Both the position numbers and the translations under genes were made by a program. The notes beneath the pieces were generated by a model. That model worked only from the letters and a program-made list of their open reading frames with translations. It did no database searches and had not been told where the DNA came from. Positions 4,661 to 24,230 of a stretch of DNA of 64,000 nt are shown in pieces (within the stretch, counting starts at the first letter, position 1; each line of letters begins with the position of its first letter). The stretch covers positions 342,605 through 406,604 of the forward strand of contig JALCSW010000002.1 in the NCBI GenBank assembly GCA_022653695.1. Reading direction: 5' to 3'. The DNA is from Bacilli bacterium (lineage in GTDB: Bacteria; Bacillota_I; Bacilli_A; RFN20; CAG-826).

Positions 4661-5995
4661 CTATTTGGCGGCCTCCGCGCTCATGGGACTCTCGACGGGG
4701 GCAGCGGCCCCCGCGATGGCTTCGGCGGGAACGCCCTCCTTGACGAGCGGGGTTTCCTTTTTCATCGCGGCGTAGTAAAGGGCGGTGTCGAGTTCGTCAA
4801 AGGGGAAAAACTGCTCCTCTTTCACGAGTTTGAACTCGGGATGGCGGAGCAGGAAGTCCTGAACCGTCGCATGCCCCTCTTTCTTCGAGACCGTGTAGAT
4901 CATGTAGATGTAGGTGCCTCCTTCGTCGACGTACTTGGAAAGGCCTTCGAGCATCGCCTTCTCCTCGGCGAAAAGCTCATCCATGCCCTCCTTTTTGAAA
5001 TGAAGGAGGTAGTCGGGGGACTCGCGGATAAGATCGAAGTTCGAACTGTCGGGGGCGGCGATGACGAGATCCTGAGGGCGGCTGATGCTCGCCTCGAGGG
5101 CCGAAGGGTCCCCGGCGAAGAAATTCACGTTCTTGAGCCCAAGCTCCCGGATCATCCGACTCACGTCGGCGTATTTCTGAAGGTCGTAAACCCCGAGGTT
5201 CATCCCGATGGAGGAGCCATAGGTCTCGACGACTTCCTTGAGGATCGAGCTGTCGCGATTGCCGTTAAAAAGAAAAACCTCGCTCGGTTCCTGGACTTTG
5301 AACTCGTCGATGATTTTCTTCGTCGCGAGTTTCTCGAGGAAGACTTGCTCGGCGAGGAACTCGGGCAGTTTGCGAAGCGGCGTCCTGCCGCCGAGGAAAA
5401 GCATGTCCTTAATCGGGGATTTGGCGTAATCGCTGTTGTTGTTCATGAGCTGTTCGGGCGTGATCATGGCGGTTCTTACGCGAACGGCGTTGATGAGGGG
5501 ACGATTGTTTTTCTTCAGGATTTTGTAGGTCGTCCCATAGCCATAATGCTCCCAAATCTTAAGCACCCACTCCGGGGTGTTGTAGCGAAGGGAAAGGTAT
5601 TTGTTGGAACTTTTGGGTAGCTTGGGGGGGATATAGTTGGCCGGATCGGCGGCTTTATCGATGAGCGGCGCCGCGAGGGCCATTTTTTCCTCGCCGAGTT
5701 TTTCGAGCAAAGCCGCTTTCATATCGGCGGCGGGGACGCGTTTGAAGAAATAGAGGTCGCCTAAGCCCAAAGCCAAGACGCGCCGATCGGCGATCTCGTA
5801 GCCTTCGAGCGGTTCGGTGAGGTAGCCGAAAAGGAGGTGATGCCTCAGCTCGCAGCCGACCAACCCCGCCACCAAAGGGCGCATTGGCCGAAGCGGCTGG
5901 TTGGTTTGGAAGACTTTGCGCAAAGCCTCGCCGAAGGGGACGTCGTTATCGAGAATGTCCCCAAGGATCCGTTCCGACAAATCGAGTTCCTGCAT
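4661..5995 (-). CDS. RsmB/Sun-family (16S rRNA m5C methyltransferase) homolog with degenerate catalytic motifs
   Basis: 444 aa, the same size and locus position as Bacillus RsmB. It has a NusB-like N-terminus and a central YNTPEWVLKIWEHYG block. Expected motifs are replaced: DxCAAPGGK becomes FLFNGNRDS, DAPCSG becomes AAPDSS, and TCS becomes TVS. Confidence 0.7.
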   Translation of the reverse strand: MQELDLSERILGDILDNDVPFGEALRKVFQTNQPLRPMRPLVAGLVGCELRHHLLFGYLTEPLEGYEIADRRVLALGLGDLYFFKRVPAADMKAALLEKLGEEKMALAAPLIDKAADPANYIPPKLPKSSNKYLSLRYNTPEWVLKIWEHYGYGTTYKILKKNNRPLINAVRVRTAMITPEQLMNNNSDYAKSPIKDMLFLGGRTPLRKLPEFLAEQVFLEKLATKKIIDEFKVQEPSEVFLFNGNRDSSILKEVVETYGSSIGMNLGVYDLQKYADVSRMIRELGLKNVNFFAGDPSALEASISRPQDLVIAAPDSSNFDLIRESPDYLLHFKKEGMDELFAEEKAMLEGLSKYVDEGGTYIYMIYTVSKKEGHATVQDFLLRHPEFKLVKEEQFFPFDELDTALYYAAMKKETPLVKEGVPAEAIAGAAAPVESPMSAEAAK

Positions 5996-15239: not shown

Positions 15240-16061
15240 ATGAAACGGAGCCTATGCGCCCTTGGGGCGATTTCCCTTCTTTGCCTGAGCGGCTGCTCGA
15301 ACGGCACGCCCTATTGCGACGCGAACGGGGAAATCGCGGAAACGGCCTCGACGTATCGCGAAGCGATGGTCGAGGAGAGGGCCTCCTCCCTGATCGCCCG
15401 GGCCCAAGCCGGGGAAACGGTCTATTTCTTTCACGCCTCCTCGACGTGCCCCGCCTGCTCACGCTACGAAAGCGCCATCGCCGCCGGGTTGGCGAAAACC
15501 AATCTCCGCGTCTCGTTGCTTTATCGCTCCAGCGAAGCGGGGTTCGACGAAACGGCCTATTGGGCCGACGTCAGCCTTCTGCAAGCGGCGTACCCGAGCG
15601 ATGAAGGGGGGACGACGGGCTTTCAGGACAATTACCCCCGTTTTTATCGCCTTCAGAAGGATACCTGCGAGATTCTGTCCTTTAACGCCTACGCCGACAG
15701 CGGGAATTCCTTTTCCTCGTACTTGGGGCGGGTTTCCAACCTCAACGGCCTCACCCATTTCCGGACCTACGAGAAGGCCGCCTCTTTCGCCGCGAGGAAT
15801 TCCTGCCCGCTTTACCTCTATGACGAGACCGACGCCGAAGCCTTCGCCTTTTATTTCGCGGAAATCCGTTCCCGGGGCCAAAAAAGGGAAACCCCCTTCG
15901 CCATCCTCGATTTCGCCGAGATGAACGATGGGCAAAAAACGGCCGCTTTGGCGGGCTTTTCGCTTGAGAGCTACGTTCCTATGATTCGTCTGGGCCAAAC
16001 CGTCCGCGCCATAAAAAGCGAAGCGGCTTCCGCCGCCTCGCTCGTCGCTTCCTACTACTGA
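15240..16061 (+). CDS. Lipoprotein with a thioredoxin-like CxxC motif
   Basis: Start at ATG 15240 (MKRSLCALGAISLLCLSGCSNG) with lipobox LSGC. CPAC in YFFHASSTCPACSRYE. TACACT lies 6 nt upstream of the ATG. The ORF-track start 15183 adds a basic, non-signal extension. Confidence 0.65.
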   Translation: MKRSLCALGAISLLCLSGCSNGTPYCDANGEIAETASTYREAMVEERASSLIARAQAGETVYFFHASSTCPACSRYESAIAAGLAKTNLRVSLLYRSSEAGFDETAYWADVSLLQAAYPSDEGGTTGFQDNYPRFYRLQKDTCEILSFNAYADSGNSFSSYLGRVSNLNGLTHFRTYEKAASFAARNSCPLYLYDETDAEAFAFYFAEIRSRGQKRETPFAILDFAEMNDGQKTAALAGFSLESYVPMIRLGQTVRAIKSEAASAASLVASYY

Positions 16062-17285
16062 TCACTTCGTCTTTTCGCGGACGAAGGCGTCGAAGGCCAA
16101 CCCGTCTTCGTACTTCCTGAATTTGGCGTAGTAATAGGTGTCGCCCATCGCTAAGGCCATATGGATCGGGTAACGCCCGTACATGCACATCGAATCGTGG
16201 TATTTGGCGAGGATCTCGCTTTCGGTGTGGGCGTATTCGCGTTTGTCCTTTCTGGCGGAGGCGAAGGCATAGAATTTTTCCTTATCCATGTTCTGGCGGT
16301 TCTCGTCATAGCAAACGACGTCCGCGTAAATCTCGTAGCAGCTCACCGAATTGGCGTAATCGATAAGATCGGGGGTGTAGCCGCCGGCGGGTCGCATATT
16401 GCATTCCAAGGCGACGAACTCGCCTTTTTTGGCGAAGCCCGGCTTGTCCTCACTCAGCACGAAGAACTCGATGTGGAAGAAGCGTTGCCGGATGCCGAAG
16501 GCTTTGACGACCGCCCTCCCGGTCTTCTCGAAAGCCTTCCCGTCGATGTCGTGGAAAGGAAGCGCGAAAGGGTTGTTGTAATAATAGTAATCGAGGTCAT
16601 CGTTGACGACCTTGGCCACCGCGGTGGTGAAGTGGTCGCTCGTGCAAAAAACGACGTCGCTGTGCGAATCGCAGATGCCGTCGAAGGAAACGATGATGCC
16701 TTCGATATACTCCTCCACGATGTAGGTCTCGGGAAGGCTTTTGCTCAGGAAACGCCTGAGGGAGTCTTCGTCGCGAAGGGCGAAGGACCCGTTGGCCCCC
16801 ACCCCAACGTTGGGTTTCACGAACACCGGATAGCCGACCTCTTTGGCGAAGCGAAGGGCTTCCTCGAGGTCTTTCGGCCCGTCGACGAGGGTGTAGCGCA
16901 TCGTCTTGGCCCCGCCGAGGCGGAAGCACTCCTTCATCGCCGATTTGGCTTTGATCTTCGTCATGTCGGCGGGGAGAAAACCGCTATCGAGGCCAAGGGC
17001 CTCGCGAAGTTTGGCGTCTTGGGAGAGCCACCACTCGTTATCGCTTTCGATGAAACCGATTTTCCCGTATTTGCCCTGATAGTACCGGCAAGCCTTCAGC
17101 ATCTCGGGATAGTTGGAAAGATCGCGCACGAAATAGTACTCCGTGAGGGCCTTCTTGAGCCGCGGATGGACGTCGTAATACGGGGAATCCCCGATGCCGA
17201 GGACGTTGACTCCGTGGTCTTTGAGGGCTTCCACCCATTTGAAATAACGGATCGGGAAGTTGGGGGACACGAAGATGAAGTTCAT
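16062..17285 (-). CDS. ATP-grasp domain protein, substrate unknown
   Basis: 407 aa. It has a pre-ATP-grasp N-domain and a central ATP-grasp pattern (KAKSAMKE..., YPVFVKPNVGVGANG, YIVEEYIEG, ALECNMRPAGG). It starts 26 nt after the atpC stop on the same strand. Confidence 0.75.
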   Translation of the reverse strand: MNFIFVSPNFPIRYFKWVEALKDHGVNVLGIGDSPYYDVHPRLKKALTEYYFVRDLSNYPEMLKACRYYQGKYGKIGFIESDNEWWLSQDAKLREALGLDSGFLPADMTKIKAKSAMKECFRLGGAKTMRYTLVDGPKDLEEALRFAKEVGYPVFVKPNVGVGANGSFALRDEDSLRRFLSKSLPETYIVEEYIEGIIVSFDGICDSHSDVVFCTSDHFTTAVAKVVNDDLDYYYYNNPFALPFHDIDGKAFEKTGRAVVKAFGIRQRFFHIEFFVLSEDKPGFAKKGEFVALECNMRPAGGYTPDLIDYANSVSCYEIYADVVCYDENRQNMDKEKFYAFASARKDKREYAHTESEILAKYHDSMCMYGRYPIHMALAMGDTYYYAKFRKYEDGLAFDAFVREKTK

Positions 17286-17311: not shown

Positions 17312-19137
<1,826 letters not shown>

Positions 19138-19998
19138 TTAACTGGCATTGGCTCCGCCAACGACCTCGGTGATCTCCTGGGTGATGGCGTTCTGCCGCGC
19201 TTTGTTGTATTCGATCTGCAATTTGCCAAGTATCTCGTCGGCGTTGTCGTTCGCGTTATCCATCGCCGTGCGGCGCGAAGCCTGCTCGCTCAATTGGCTG
19301 TCAAGCAAACGGTCGTAGAAGACCGAGGCGAGGTACTCGCTCATGAAATGGTGGATGAGGTGGCGGGGCGCCTCGTCGAAGAGAGGGGGGCAATACTCCT
19401 CCCCCGGCCACTTCTCCTGCTTGATCTGAACCGGCAAAAGCTGGAAGCGGATCGGCGTGAAGGTTATCGAGTTGACGTAACGCGTGAAGATGACGTAAAT
19501 GCGGGCGTATTTCCTGGCGTTGAAATCGTCTTTCAGACCCAAGCAAAGTTTCTGGATGGAATCGAGGTCAAGCGAAGCCAAGGACAGCTTCTCGAAATCG
19601 TGGTCGATGTTTTTGTAGGTATCGTCGTTCGCGTAATGGTGAGTGGCCTTTAGGCCGAGCGGGGCGATGACGTCCGTCGGTTTGGCGCATTTGGAAACCC
19701 ATTTGAAGACTTCGTTGTTGTAGCCCCCGCAAAGGCCGAGGTCGCTGCTGATGCAAATGAAAAGGTTCGGCAAATCGCCTTCGTTGGGACGCCCATAGTG
19801 GGAAGCCGTGCCGGAATCGTGGGCGAAAAGCTCGCCCATGAGCGACTCGAATTCGCGGCTGTAAAGCCGTTCCTTGGACGAGGCCGATAAGAGCTTCTTA
19901 AGTCGCACCGTGGAGATGAGTTCCATCGCCTTGGTGATCTTCTCGGTGCTCTTGACGGAGGTGATCCGATGTTTTGTTTTGCTGAGCCCGACCGACAT
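19138..19998 (-). CDS. atpG: F1 ATP synthase gamma subunit
   Basis: N-terminal RITSVKSTEKITKAMELIS and C-terminal NKARQNAITQEITEVVGGA helices. 286 aa. Confidence 0.9.
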   Translation of the reverse strand: MSVGLSKTKHRITSVKSTEKITKAMELISTVRLKKLLSASSKERLYSREFESLMGELFAHDSGTASHYGRPNEGDLPNLFICISSDLGLCGGYNNEVFKWVSKCAKPTDVIAPLGLKATHHYANDDTYKNIDHDFEKLSLASLDLDSIQKLCLGLKDDFNARKYARIYVIFTRYVNSITFTPIRFQLLPVQIKQEKWPGEEYCPPLFDEAPRHLIHHFMSEYLASVFYDRLLDSQLSEQASRRTAMDNANDNADEILGKLQIEYNKARQNAITQEITEVVGGANAS

Positions 19999-20000
19999 CC

Positions 20001-21506
20001 TTATTTCCTGATTTCCTTGTAGGCGGCGATGGCTTTGTCGAGTTTCTTCGACAAATCGTCGTCAAACTTCTTGTCTTTCCTCAGTTTTTCGACGAGGTCG
20101 CGGTCGTTGTCCTTAAGGTAAGAGACAAGCCCTTCGAGGAACGATCCGACCTGCTCAAGCGGCAAATCGTCGAGGAACCGCCCTTTGACGGCGTAAAGCT
20201 CAAGCTCTTCGTCCTCCATGGGAAGAGGGGCGAAGTTCTTTTGCTTCAGGGCTTCGGTGACGACGGCCCCATGAGCGAGGATCTTCTTGGTCTCGACGTC
20301 GAGGTCGCTGCCGAATTGGCTGAAGGAAAGGTTCTCGCGGTAATTGGCGAGCTCGATCTTGAGCGATCCGGCGACCTGCTTCATGGCTTTCGTCTGCGCG
20401 GCGGAACCGACGCGGGAGACGGAGAAGCCACTGTCGACGGCCGGGCGTTGGCCGGCCGTGAAATAATCGGTGACCAGAAAAATCTGACCATCGGTGATGG
20501 AGATGACGTTCGTCGGGATGTAGGCGCTGATGTCGCCGGCCTGGGTCTCGATGATCGGCAAAGCCGTTATCGAGCCGCCGCCGTATTCCGGGGCGAGTTT
20601 GCACGCCCGCTCAAGAAGGCGCGAATGGAGATAGAAGATGTCGCCCGGATAAGCCTCGCGGCCCGGCGAGCGGCGCAGAAGGAGCGAAAGGGCGCGGTAA
20701 GCGACCGCGTGCTTGCTGAGATCGTCGAAAACGATGAGGACGTCCTGGCCTTTTTCCATCCATTCCTCGGCCATCGCCATGCCGGCGAAGGGGGCGATGT
20801 ATTGCTGTGGGGCCGATTCGCTGGCCGAGGCGTTGACCACGGTGACATAGTCGAAGCAGCCTTTTTCCTTGAGTTTGGCCACCAAAGAGGCCACGGAGGA
20901 GTTCTTCTGGCCGACGGCGACGTAAACGCAGTTGACGCCCTTGCCCTTCTGATTGACGATCGTGTCGATCGCGATCGAGGTTTTGCCGGTTTGGCGGTCG
21001 CCGATGATGAGTTCGCGCTGCCCGCGGCCGATCGGGATGATGCTGTCGACGGCCTTGAGGCCGGTCTCGAGCGGGGTATCGACCGATTTTCGTTTCATGA
21101 CGCCCGGGGCGATGCGCTCGATCGGGCGGGTTTTGCCGTAGGAAATGGGGCCAAGGCCGTCGATCGGGAGGCCAAGCGGGGAGACGACGCGGCCCAAAAG
21201 GCCGTCGCCCACCGGAACCTCGACGACGCGATTCGTGCGCTTAACGGTATCGCCTTCCTTGATGGAGAGCTCCGAGCCGAGAAGCACGGCGCCGACGTCC
21301 TCGGCGTTGAGGTTCATGACCATGCCGTAAACGTCGCCCGGGAAAAGAAGGAGCTCGCCCAGCATCGCGTCCTTGAGGCCATAGATAAGCGCGATGCCGT
21401 CGCCCACGGATATGACCGTGCCGACGTCATCGTCTTCGAGTTGCCCCTCGAATCCTTTGATTTGCTCTTTGATAAGGGATGATATTTCCCCAGCGTTCAG
21501 ATTCAT
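20001..21506 (-). CDS. atpA: F1 ATP synthase alpha subunit
   Basis: Walker [10 protein letters not shown], a [18 protein letters not shown] block, and 501 aa. TAATG 1-nt overlap with the atpH stop. Confidence 0.95.
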
Positions 21507-22048
21507 TAGCGGATTCCTCCTTCAAGCAGACTTCTATGCAAATCGCTCAGTTTCCTTTCGAGCGATCCGTCGAACACTTTTCCCGCGATCGCGACTTTGA
21601 CGCCGCCCAAGATGGCGGGATCGACGCGATTGCGGAGCGCGGCTTTCTTGCCGAGCGCTTTCCCAATGGCCTCTTCCAAAGCGGCCATCTCCTCCTTCGA
21701 GAGGGGATAAACGCTGTAAGCGAGGCCTTCCTCGACCCCCAAGCCTTCGTTCACGAGGGACGAAAACTGGGCGGTTATTTCCCGAAAATAGCCGACGGCG
21801 TGGTTCTTGACGACGGTTTTCATGAATGGCGCGAGGCTTTTGAGGCCCTTCCCCCACAGCTCGTCGATAAGTGCGTAAAGCCGCTCCTTGGGAATGGCGT
21901 AGGATTTCAGCGTCTCCAAAAGGGCGGGGTCGCCCGCCAAAGAGCCGTCGATGCCCCTCAGGGCGTCCTGATATTCCTTGGCTTTCCCCTCTTCGAGCGC
22001 GAGCCCGTAGAGGGCCGAAGCGAAAGAGGCGGCCTTATCCTCAAACAT
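21506..22048 (-). CDS. atpH: F1 ATP synthase delta (OSCP) subunit
   Basis: 180 aa, positioned between atpF and atpA. The C-terminal [17 protein letters not shown] pattern is typical of delta. Confidence 0.75.
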
Positions 22049-22616
22049 CCTTCTCGCCCTTCTTGACTTCCTTCACGAAGTCGCTCACGAGTTTCTCGTT
22101 GTCGCTCTTGCCCAGTTCGCGCCCGATGACCTGCTTCGAGGCGGCGAGGGCCACGTCGACGATTTCGCGACGGACCTTCTCTTTCGAGGCTTCCTCGGCT
22201 TGCGCGATGGCCAGATCGGCGTCTTTTTTCTTCCGGACGGCCTCGGCCATGGCCTCGTCGGTGATGGCTTTGGCGCTCACTTCGGCATTGGCTTTGGCCT
22301 TGCCGACGATTCGGGCGCCTTCTTTGCGGGCGTCTTCGATGAGCCGGTCGCTTTCGGCGGCCTTCCGCTCATTGATGGCTTTGGCCTTCTCGCTGTCCCT
22401 GATGTTGTGCTCCACGTAGTCCTTCCGGGCTTCGATGTTCTTCTTGACGGGTTTGTAGGCGATGAAATAAACCGCGAGGAAAAGAACGATCAAGGCGAGG
22501 AAGTTGATGAGAAAGCTCCAACCGTTGGGGAAGAGTTTCTTTAAGATGTCGTCGCTCGTGATCGGGGTGCTGCCGCCGATGATGACGGCTTGTTGGTAAA
22601 CCCACGAAAACAGCAT
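22041..22616 (-). CDS. atpF: Fo ATP synthase b subunit
   Basis: A single N-terminal TM (FLINFLALIVLFLAVYFIAY) is followed by a long charged A/E/K-rich helix. Operon position supports the call. Confidence 0.75.
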   Translation of the reverse strand: MLFSWVYQQAVIIGGSTPITSDDILKKLFPNGWSFLINFLALIVLFLAVYFIAYKPVKKNIEARKDYVEHNIRDSEKAKAINERKAAESDRLIEDARKEGARIVGKAKANAEVSAKAITDEAMAEAVRKKKDADLAIAQAEEASKEKVRREIVDVALAASKQVIGRELGKSDNEKLVSDFVKEVKKGEKDV

Positions 22617-22619
22617 GCG

Positions 22620-22862
22620 TTAAGCCGTGGCCCGTCCACCTAAGACGAACATGATGAGGATCGCCACGATCAAGCAGTAAATGGCGGTCGACTCGTCGAG
22701 CGCGACGGCGAGCAGCATCGTGCGTTGCAGCTTCGGCTGCATCTCCGGATTGCGGACCATGCCGTCGATCGAATGGCAGCAGATCAGACTTTCTCCGATG
22801 GACGACAAGCATCCGAACGCGACGCAGATGGCCGCGCCAATGGCTACCAAACCCAAACTCAT
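22620..22862 (-). CDS. atpE: Fo ATP synthase c subunit (Na+-type ion-binding signature)
   Basis: Start at ATG 22862 (MSLGLVAIG...), preceded by AAGGAGGA. An 80-aa hairpin with loop RNPE and helix-2 LDESTAIY. The ORF-track start 22937 is an upstream extension. Confidence 0.85.
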   Translation of the reverse strand: MSLGLVAIGAAICVAFGCLSSIGESLICCHSIDGMVRNPEMQPKLQRTMLLAVALDESTAIYCLIVAILIMFVLGGRATA

Positions 22863-22893
22863 AATGAATTCCTCCTTAAATTTGGTATTTCCC

Positions 22894-23715
22894 TTATTCC
22901 TTGGCTGAAACCGGGCGAGGGCTCGGCCCTTCCACAAGGGAAGGCCCTTCCTCGGCCGGCTTCTCCTGAGCGATCCATAGAGCCGAGAGGCTCATAAAGA
23001 CCAGCGTCTGGACGAAGCCAGTGAATAAGTTGAAATAAAGATTGAGGATGCCCATCGGTATCGGAGCCAGGAAAATGGACGTCCACATATAAGTGCCGTT
23101 AAGAGGCACGACGCTCGAGAAAATGGCCATGCTGGCCTTGCCGAGGGCCCATTGGATGAGCCCGATGATGATGGTGCCGCTGAGGCAGTTGCCGAACATA
23201 CGGACGGCGGTCGAGATGATCGGGGTCCACATCGTGATGAGGTTGATCGGCAGAAAAATCGAAATCGGCTCGATATAGCGATGGAAATAATGCCAATGGT
23301 TGTATTTGACGGCGAAGAACTGAATCAAAATGAACATGATGATCGAAAGGCAAAGCGGGGCGGCGAGCCAATCGATGACGGAGGGCATGCCCGTGATGCC
23401 CCAGATGAAACCAAGGAAAAGATAGCTTGCGAGAGCGAGGAAATAGCCGGTCATCCTGTCCCAGCCGGGACCCATCATCCCCTCGACCCACTCGCCGAGT
23501 TTCTCGACGGCGAGCTCAACGACCATATAGGCGCCTTTGGGCCGCTCGAGATACAGTTTCTTCTTGTAGATGATCCGGGCGTGGACGCCCACCACGATCG
23601 CCACCACGATCAAAAGGAAAATGATGAGGAGGGAACTGAATAGCGATGCGTCGAGGTCCCACGACCACATGGACGCCAAACGGTCTTTGTATGTCATCGT
23701 GGTGGTCAGGATCAT
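22894..23715 (-). CDS. atpB: Fo ATP synthase a subunit
   Basis: Essential-Arg motif RMFGNCLSG, about 5-6 TM helices, and ATGA overlap with the atpI-like stop. C-terminal P/E-rich tail. Confidence 0.85.
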   Translation of the reverse strand: MILTTTMTYKDRLASMWSWDLDASLFSSLLIIFLLIVVAIVVGVHARIIYKKKLYLERPKGAYMVVELAVEKLGEWVEGMMGPGWDRMTGYFLALASYLFLGFIWGITGMPSVIDWLAAPLCLSIIMFILIQFFAVKYNHWHYFHRYIEPISIFLPINLITMWTPIISTAVRMFGNCLSGTIIIGLIQWALGKASMAIFSSVVPLNGTYMWTSIFLAPIPMGILNLYFNLFTGFVQTLVFMSLSALWIAQEKPAEEGPSLVEGPSPRPVSAKE

Positions 23716-24230
23716 TCCACTTCGCCTTCGGAAGAATCGCCTTTCGTTTCTTCGTCAGTCGGGGATAAAGTATGGATTTTGCTTTGCCCTTTTTCGCCAT
23801 GGAGGTTCGAAAGGATCAGCACGAGCGGCATCGGGATGATGGCGAGCATCGTCCCCCAGAACGACAGAAGATCCCAGCCCCCGAACCATTCCGGCTTGAA
23901 GGTGCAGATGGCGCTCACGACGAGGACGGCGATGTATAGCGCCATGCGCGCGCTCATGAAAAGAACCGATTTGACGGTCATTCCGCTAGGCGTTTGGCCC
24001 ATCAGCATGTCCGGGAGCTTGGAAATCGACCAATAGGAGAAAAGCGAGACGAGGGCCCCGGCCAGCCATCCCCAATTCCACATGCTGAGACGAAAGAAAA
24101 ACAAAGGGATCAGAAGGACGAACACGATGCCGTAAAAGGCGGCAAGAAGGACAAAGTCCTTCTTTATTGGGTCCATGCGAGCGAAGCGTTGGGCGAAGTT
24201 AAGTTTCGGTTCTTTCTCTTTCTGGTCCAT
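23712..24230 (-). CDS. atpI: AtpI-like small membrane protein (first gene of the atp operon)
   Basis: 172 aa with 4 hydrophobic segments, translationally coupled to atpB. The assignment rests on position and topology only. Confidence 0.5.
   Translation of the reverse strand: MDQKEKEPKLNFAQRFARMDPIKKDFVLLAAFYGIVFVLLIPLFFFRLSMWNWGWLAGALVSLFSYWSISKLPDMLMGQTPSGMTVKSVLFMSARMALYIAVLVVSAICTFKPEWFGGWDLLSFWGTMLAIIPMPLVLILSNLHGEKGQSKIHTLSPTDEETKGDSSEGEVE

Follow-up and report, generated by a model that had tools for sequence, protein, structure and literature searches.

A two-carboxylate Na+-binding signature in the F-type ATP synthase c subunit of an uncultured RFN20 bacterium

In the 64,000-nucleotide stretch of contig JALCSW010000002.1 analyzed here (the window), which belongs to an uncultured bacterium of the order RFN20, the gene atpE encodes the c subunit of an F-type ATP synthase, a protein of 80 amino acids whose sequence carries a signature of Na+ binding. 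The complement of positions 22620..22862 translates, letter for letter and followed by a stop codon, into the protein described by an initial annotation of this DNA; the plus-strand reading of the same interval is nonsense, and atpE lies on the minus strand. The gene begins at an ATG at position 22862, with a Shine-Dalgarno sequence (AAGGAGG, 22871..22877, minus strand) 8 nucleotides upstream, and a longer open reading frame (ORF) initiated at TTG was rejected since close homologues begin at the same Met. The product matches the Pfam family ATP-synt_C (PF00137) with an E-value of 2.6e-15 and 56.8 bits, for a cut-off of 24, and its AlphaFold model, with a predicted local distance difference test (pLDDT) score of 92.2, comprises two helices (residues 3-37 and 39-79) separated by a break at N38. 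All the features by which F-type c subunits are recognized were found: a two-helix hairpin with a polar R-x-P loop, a carboxylate in the middle of helix 2 (E57) and a location within an F-type operon. AtpE is a true c subunit, and the F1Fo ATPase to which it belongs is complete and of the Bacilli type; its RFN20 host lies close to the GTDB family CAG-826, genus UBA4951. An identical protein is encoded on eight metagenome contigs (JGI and Logan) from samples similar to the reactors in which its relatives were found. It contains five Cys residues (positions 13, 18, 28, 29 and 63) and not four, as had been counted initially.

Three segments of the gene, all on the minus strand, define the putative ion site. 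The loop R37-N38-P39 (22746..22754) serves as alignment anchor, R37 and P39 being invariant and the model placing the helix break at residue 38. In helix 1, the segment G17-C-L-S-S-I-G-E24-S25 (22788..22814) carries E24, the candidate second carboxylate, at position 32 of the Na+ rings. In helix 2, the segment L55-D56-E57-S58-T59-A60-I61-Y62 (22677..22700, with the D56 codon at 22695-22697) is the counterpart of V63-A64-E65-S66-T67-G68-I69-Y70 of Ilyobacter tartaricus. A codon check bears out the spacings initially reported, since E24 lies 13 residues before R37 and E57 20 residues after it, followed by S58, T59 and Y62. These spacings had been said to reproduce positions 32, 65, 66, 67 and 70 of Na+ rings, and gapless alignments agree: in a HMMER search against all PDB sequences, residues 3-72 of AtpE align on residues 11-80 of the Fusobacterium nucleatum c subunit (3ZK1) and residues 4-72 on residues 12-80 of the one of I. 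tartaricus (1YCE), while BLASTP with the sequence of the I. tartaricus subunit aligns residues 7-72 on 15-80. With this constant offset of 8, E24 corresponds to E/Q32, L55 to V63, D56 to A64, E57 to E65, S58 to S66, T59 to T67 and Y62 to Y70. The structure-based register agrees as well, since N38, where the model breaks the helix, corresponds to Q46 of the R-Q-P loop. The Glu, Ser and Thr residues hence stay on the binding positions, a shift of which had been named as the result that would overturn the proposal of a Na+ site. When the hairpin model was used for a fold search, it retrieved both Na+ and H+ rings, so that this comparison did not discriminate between them.

In the F. nucleatum ring, Na+ is held by Glu32, the Val63 carbonyl, Glu65, Ser66 and, as fifth ligand, a water molecule itself held by Thr67 and the Ala64 carbonyl, while Tyr70 and Ser66 form hydrogen bonds with Glu65 and Glu32 remains protonated (PMC3692424). 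Simulation and vesicle assays showed this constitutive protonation of the helix-1 Glu, with Na+ alone being transported (PMC3692424). The Na+ c-ring signature that we applied, that of Dzioba and Mulkidjanian, asks for an E or Q in helix 1 together with E[STQ][STQ]xxY in helix 2 (bioRxiv 10.64898/2026.10.01.756066). AtpE satisfies this signature with E24 in helix 1 and E57-S58-T59-A-I-Y62 in helix 2, and also the two-carboxylate pattern of the F. nucleatum type, with Glu instead of Gln at position 32 and the full Ser/Thr/Tyr set. As far as the alignments tell, it carries every residue known to bind Na+ rather than H+ and, at the sequence level, each c-c interface carries a two-carboxylate Na+ site of the F. 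nucleatum type. The GxGxGxGxG motif by which the inner helices pack in the solved Na+ c11 rings, and which contributes no ion ligand, is not found in AtpE; its absence bears on the packing and the size of the ring and not on the ion ligands.

This signature is widely conserved. A search of 5.8 billion clustered proteins returned 98 relatives of AtpE, 39 of which, sharing 58-94% identity with it, were aligned (mean column identity 62%). The invariant columns of this alignment include G17, G23, E24, R37, P39, A54, L55, D56, E57, S58, I61 and Y62, and T59 is conserved in at least 90% of the sequences. A larger set of 133 sequences was formed from the search relatives and from genes read in related loci, restricted to carriers of the D-E pair and reaching down to ~55% identity. 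There, Y62 is kept in all 133 sequences, E24 and G23 in 132 each, S20 in 127 and G17 in 124; S58 is present in 128 and replaced by Thr in the five others, and T59 is present in 117, with Cys in 14 and Ala in two, so that ~12% of the family, with DESC or DESA forms, is devoid of this Thr. Position 19 is Leu or Phe and position 21 Ala or Ser in nearly all members. Moreover, at least 499 loci encoding AtpE relatives were found when prokaryotes were scanned with one genome for each species. The exact coding pattern for ALDESTAIY occurs in 84 stretches of these species-level genomes, nearly all of them in metagenome-assembled genomes (MAGs) of uncultured Bacilli, 'Mollicutes' or 'Erysipelotrichaceae' from rumen, gut and bioreactors; of 11 that were translated, five proved to be c subunits and six did not. 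Since the signature is conserved in 133 relatives and in species-level loci at low overall identity, it is a family trait under selection and not the product of chance.

Related patterns are found in neighbouring lineages, namely GE...(V/T/D/I)ETTxIY in MAGs labelled Erysipelotrichaceae or Bacilli and GQG...ES(S/A)AIY in MAGs labelled Mycoplasma; judged by these motifs, a Na+-type site is common to the whole radiation around RFN20. A library-wide phmmer search was dominated by c subunits with multiple hairpins, and its single-hairpin representatives mostly carry E/Q...E[ST]xxIY too. The best scores of this search (P0100-P0108) belong to giant c subunits of 5-13 fused hairpins and up to 1,042 residues. 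Of note, a 6.7-kb contig with 43.5% GC content from a Candidatus Peribacteria MAG (CAYGAB010000053.1, our locus L113) contains a whole F-type atp operon, whose c gene, on the minus strand at ~5567-5593, reads ...GYGE...MALDESTAIY, the same site as in the RFN20 family. The presence of this operon in a bin of the candidate phyla radiation may reflect horizontal transfer, convergence or a binning error.

Regarding the operon itself, it is intact and uninterrupted on the minus strand, in the order atpI-like, atpB, atpE, atpF, atpH, atpA, atpG, atpD and atpC, and every ORF is whole. At its head, a 172-residue membrane protein (23712..24230), whose position is kept in relatives, has no Pfam match and only a weak similarity, under the cut-off (E-value 1.3e-4), to the MG406 family of mycoplasma (NCBIfam NF033688); it probably fills the role of AtpI. 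It is followed by atpB (22894..23715; a subunit, 273 residues; PF00119, E-value 1.8e-25) and, beyond atpE, by atpF (22041..22616; b subunit, 191 residues; PF00430, E-value 1.4e-18), atpH (21506..22048; delta subunit, full length with 180 residues; PF00213, E-value 1.4e-33) and atpA (20001..21506; alpha subunit, 501 residues), identified from its ORF and from the Pfam families recorded for an identical gene. The three last genes are atpG (19138..19998; gamma subunit, 286 residues), identified likewise from its ORF and the record of an identical gene, atpD (17695..19125; beta subunit, 476 residues), assigned to the Bacilli type by its best solved relatives, and atpC (17312..17698; epsilon subunit, 128 residues), called on identical contigs and matching TIGR01216 with an E-value of 3.3e-14. 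Upstream, consensus scans on the minus strand located a terminator-like hairpin of 11 pairs (24308-24284), downstream of pfp, and a promoter-like element TTGACT-17-TACCAT (24269-24241), ahead of the atpI-like gene. Transcription of the atp operon may therefore start at a separate promoter and not depend on read-through from pncA-pfp. A search for RNA sequencing runs holding the atp operon found none. Directly 3' of atpC, on the same strand, a stand-alone ATP-grasp gene occupies positions 16062-17285, as it does in one related locus (L081, 15578-16801). In L086, a locus of a more remotely related RFN20 member with a c subunit (P0029) 77% identical to AtpE in the 39-sequence alignment, a gene of similar length (15567-16796; 409 residues), with no recorded Pfam match, is present at the same place after atpC.

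AtpB is strongly divergent, its best PDB match reaching an E-value of 4e-8 across 67 residues, and carries additional sequence between its last two helices. Its R172, in the motif AVRMFGN, is the stator Arg: it aligns with the Arg of the chloroplast and Bacillus PS3 a subunits, and RMFGN is common to the relatives. Here and in the relatives L002-L062, the motif extends to RMFGNxxxG(T/S), with Thr or Ser replacing the Glu present nine residues past the stator Arg in the a subunits of PS3, chloroplasts and Escherichia coli. This missing Glu was considered as a marker of Na+ coupling and rejected, since many H+ enzymes are likewise devoid of it.

The solved structures closest to AtpD are 2QE7 (720 bits), from Caldalkalibacillus thermarum, and 6N2Y and 1SKY (709 and 701 bits), from Bacillus PS3, followed by 6Q45 (685 bits), from F. 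nucleatum. Since its nearest solved entries are of the Bacilli type, the F1Fo complex looks vertically inherited within Bacilli and not acquired as an imported Na+ operon. An N-type ATPase was also considered and rejected: the delta subunit is present, the gene order is of the F type and the N-type c-subunit model TIGR03322 scores 36 bits for a cut-off of 130.85.

The host lineage is uncultured and known from fermentative habitats. A relative of AtpE with 94% identity (P0002) is encoded on a 237,851-bp contig of the MAG UW_MP_BACIL4_1, classified by GTDB-Tk as Bacilli; RFN20; CAG-826; UBA4951, which originates from an anaerobic reactor fermenting milk permeate (lactose) at pH 5.5 (PMC9302107). 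Another c subunit (P0007) shares 86% identity with AtpE, and the one of Candidatus Enteromonas, a member of RFN20/CAG-826 (PMC8035907), 64%. Sequencing runs holding DNA of the window come from bioreactor sludge, landfill and wastewater. RFN20 has been placed beside Erysipelotrichales, RF39 and Mycoplasmatales and is predicted to make acetate and H2, and peptidoglycan genes are rare in its genomes, mraY being present in 14% of them and murG in 5% (PMC7301438). It is thus an uncultured order of small-genome fermenters, mostly without peptidoglycan genes, found in gut, rumen and bioreactors. Of note, several RFN20-type atp operons, including L002, L006, L007, L029 and L031, occur in records titled Escherichia coli, Faecalibacterium prausnitzii, Alistipes communis, Parasutterella or Bacteroidales ('cleanbin' assemblies), organism names that appear to be wrong.

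Taken together, we favour a Na+-coupled F1Fo running mainly as an ATP-driven Na+ pump, a reading to which we give a probability of about 0.6; that Na+ is the coupling ion, irrespective of the direction in which the enzyme runs, appears the safer claim and is quite probable. In such an enzyme, E57 would be the carboxylate carrying the transported ion past R172, with E24 as its helix-1 partner, presumably in a constitutively protonated, Gln32-like state by analogy with F. nucleatum. The L55 carbonyl and the S58 hydroxyl would be direct Na+ ligands, T59 would hold the liganding water and Y62 would lock E57. At millimolar Na+ and near-neutral cytoplasmic pH, the ring should load Na+ and not H+. 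F1Fo would then work mainly in reverse, hydrolyzing ATP to expel Na+, because the host ferments sugars and its lineage is mostly devoid of peptidoglycan synthesis and without a known respiratory chain. Extrusion of Na+ would set the membrane potential, keep cellular Na+ low, energize Na+ symport and, according to the pump-leak principle, stabilize the volume of cells that are mostly wall-less. Mycoplasma species are reported to control their volume in this way, with a primary ATP-driven Na+ pump (PMC6445581), and such Na+ pumping has been measured in Mycoplasma gallisepticum and for the Na+-ATPase of Acholeplasma laidlawii. Moreover, in three species of Acholeplasma, an 'F1FO-type Na+ ATPase' has been inferred from AtpE motifs and connected with a (Na+-Mg2+)-ATPase that expels Na+ from A. 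laidlawii (PMC4221730), and the two-carboxylate Na+ motif was listed earlier in Ruminococcus albus, Eubacterium siraeum, Butyrivibrio, Thermotoga and others (PMC3692424). A Na+-type F1Fo is therefore already known, and predicted for related wall-less bacteria, and the idea is not new. Regarding the initial proposal that this ATP synthase may be Na+-coupled and would reshape the bioenergetics of the organism, its first part is upheld, as predicted from sequence, by the position of all the ligands on the solved Na+ sites and by the signature; the second is an overstatement, since the enzyme of an RFN20 fermenter more likely hydrolyzes ATP to pump Na+ out.

Several observations weigh against a Na+ pump. 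No Na+ transporter was found in a Pfam scan of the uncertain and membrane ORFs of the window, and neither D56 nor the degenerate glycine motif occurs in the PDB c-ring sequences compared here or is known from other rings of this kind. At the pH of 5.5 in which close relatives live, H+ would compete better and an ATPase extruding H+ would be useful. Moreover, Na+ specificity does not follow from a second carboxylate by itself, as the N-type ring of Burkholderia pseudomallei (E30, E61, T62, M63 and Y66) is H+-specific (PMC5376962), and H+-coupled two-carboxylate rings are expected in Streptococcus pneumoniae and Mycobacterium tuberculosis (PMC3692424). E24, S58, T59, Y62 and D56 might form a hydrogen-bonded proton site, making the enzyme H+-coupled or of mixed H+/Na+ coupling; the ATPase would then expel H+ to control the cytoplasmic pH of a fermenter living in acid, much as lactic acid bacteria do. 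The extra D56 and the degenerate glycine motif may also influence selectivity, and for the ~12% of the family with Cys or Ala in place of T59 the criteria rate Na+ transport only as 'possible' (bioRxiv 10.64898/2026.10.01.756066). We nevertheless consider H+ or mixed coupling unlikely, because AtpE has the full Ser/Thr set, conserved over hundreds of species, and because a pump loading its ion from the cytoplasm would encounter Na+ in excess over H+ by roughly 10^4-10^5. To our knowledge, the rings shown to be H+-specific all lack at least one residue of the Ser/Thr pair, and the F-type enzymes with the full motif that have been tested, those of I. tartaricus, Propionigenium modestum, Acetobacterium woodii and Clostridium paradoxum, are all Na+-coupled. 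The same holds for the full-motif enzyme of F. nucleatum (PMC3692424).

The direction of the enzyme is a distinct question. With Na+ as coupling ion, F1Fo might work mainly as an ATP synthase fed by Rnf or by a Na+-translocating decarboxylase, on the model of F. nucleatum, P. modestum and A. woodii. The subunit set is indeed complete, with delta and epsilon of full length, and F. nucleatum makes ATP from the sodium-motive force with the same motif (PMC3692424). However, neither the window nor the ~2 Mb of related loci, all of them atp neighbourhoods, yielded a Rnf-like gene, be it by tblastn with E. coli RsxA or with a regular expression for the RnfD/NqrB motif, and no Rnf or antiporter was found in ~30 kb around a relative's operon. 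Furthermore, Rnf is reported to be well preserved only in Izemoplasmatales and in the 'wastewater group', and not in RFN20 (PMC7301438). We thus regard a role mainly in ATP synthesis as improbable and retain ATP-driven extrusion of Na+ as the preferred reading.

The only unusual points of AtpE are an invariant Asp just before the ion-binding Glu and a degenerate glycine motif, both of which had been noticed initially and proved correct. The helix-1 motif here is G17-x-L19-x-S21-x-G23-x-S25, and its reduction to G17 and G23 may alter the packing or the size of the ring. D56 is kept in every RFN20-type sequence seen, its invariance among the 133 sequences being due to their selection as carriers of the D-E pair, and Asp at position 64 occurs in none of the PDB c subunits compared here and is not known from other solved rings. 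A small number of further MAGs of Bacilli (L039, L047, L048 and L049) likewise have the D-E pair, there combined with ETT and an intact GxGxG motif. The positions of the E. coli c subunit that cross-link to subunit a are 55, 62, 65, 69, 72 and 73, and a helical wheel drawn from them would place position 64 on the inward stripe of small residues, formed by G60, A64, G68, S71 and A75 in I. tartaricus and by A52, D56, A60, C63 and A67 in AtpE. This stripe would be packed against the inner helices, next to T59 and facing S20 and S21. It is hence conceivable, although doubtful, that D56 adds a third carboxylate to the ion site. It occupies position 64, the carbonyl of which holds the liganding water in F. 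nucleatum (PMC3692424), and its side chain, pointing inward beside T59 and towards Ser20 and Ser21, would either replace this water or assume the role of Thr67. Such an arrangement would explain why Cys or Ala is tolerated at T59 in 12% of the family while D56 is fixed, as well as the larger residues at positions 19 and 21. If so, the rings of RFN20 would represent a three-carboxylate variant with altered Na+ affinity or pH dependence, and perhaps ring size, and might in this way have adapted to fermentations that are acidic and rich in Na+.

If the preferred reading of an ATP-driven Na+ pump is right, a whole order of abundant, uncultured bacteria from gut, rumen and bioreactors would run its membrane on Na+ and not on H+, and F1Fo would double as the pump controlling volume in largely wall-less cells. 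This bears on metabolic models, on the choice of cultivation media, where a need for Na+ and a sensitivity towards ionophores would matter, and on the question of which molecule is the 'primary Na+ pump' in mycoplasma-like bacteria. For specialists of ATP synthases, the general point is to be expected; only the invariant Asp beside the ion-binding Glu and the absence of the glycine motif from the ring would be new.

Among known systems, the c11 ring of F. nucleatum (3ZK1 and 3ZK2) is the closest counterpart of AtpE. Both are single-hairpin c subunits encoded in F-type operons, and share, over an ungapped alignment of 70 residues, the helix-1 Glu, the E-S-T-x-I-Y motif and an R-x-P loop with identical spacing. 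However, their identity is only ~32%, and AtpE differs by Asp56 in place of Ala64, Ser20 in place of Pro28, five Cys residues and a GxLxSxGxS motif where F. nucleatum has GxGxGxGxG. The host differs too, being a sugar fermenter in which hydrolysis is likely, and no decarboxylase was found in the stretches examined, the genome as a whole not having been searched. The c11 rings of I. tartaricus and P. modestum (1YCE and 2WGM) have the V63 carbonyl, E65, S66, T67 and Y70 at the same positions, with an offset of 8, but carry Gln32 where AtpE has Glu, whereas AtpE has Asp at position 64 and no glycine motif. The H+-coupled F1Fo of Bacillus PS3 and Caldalkalibacillus thermarum provides the closest solved relatives of AtpD (709-720 bits), and the PS3 c subunit is among the best PDB matches to AtpE (E-value 3.8e-10), with which it shares the MSLG start and a similar IxG(I/M)xRxPE loop. 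In contrast to AtpE, the PS3 protein carries an Asn in its first helix and E-A-L-P in its second, without the Ser/Thr pair or the Tyr. The N-type c17 ring of B. pseudomallei combines, like AtpE, a Glu in each helix with a Tyr at +5 (PMC5376962), but its E-T-M-x-x-Y motif is devoid of the +2 ligand and its operon of delta, while the operon described here is of the F type and has delta. Finally, the F1Fo of Acholeplasma, compared here by its published description, belongs to Acholeplasmatales and not to RFN20, and to bacteria that also have V-type ATPases; yet it comes from wall-less or wall-poor members of the same Bacilli/Mollicutes radiation, its Na+ specificity was likewise deduced from the AtpE motif and an ATP-driven extrusion of Na+ has been proposed for it (PMC4221730).

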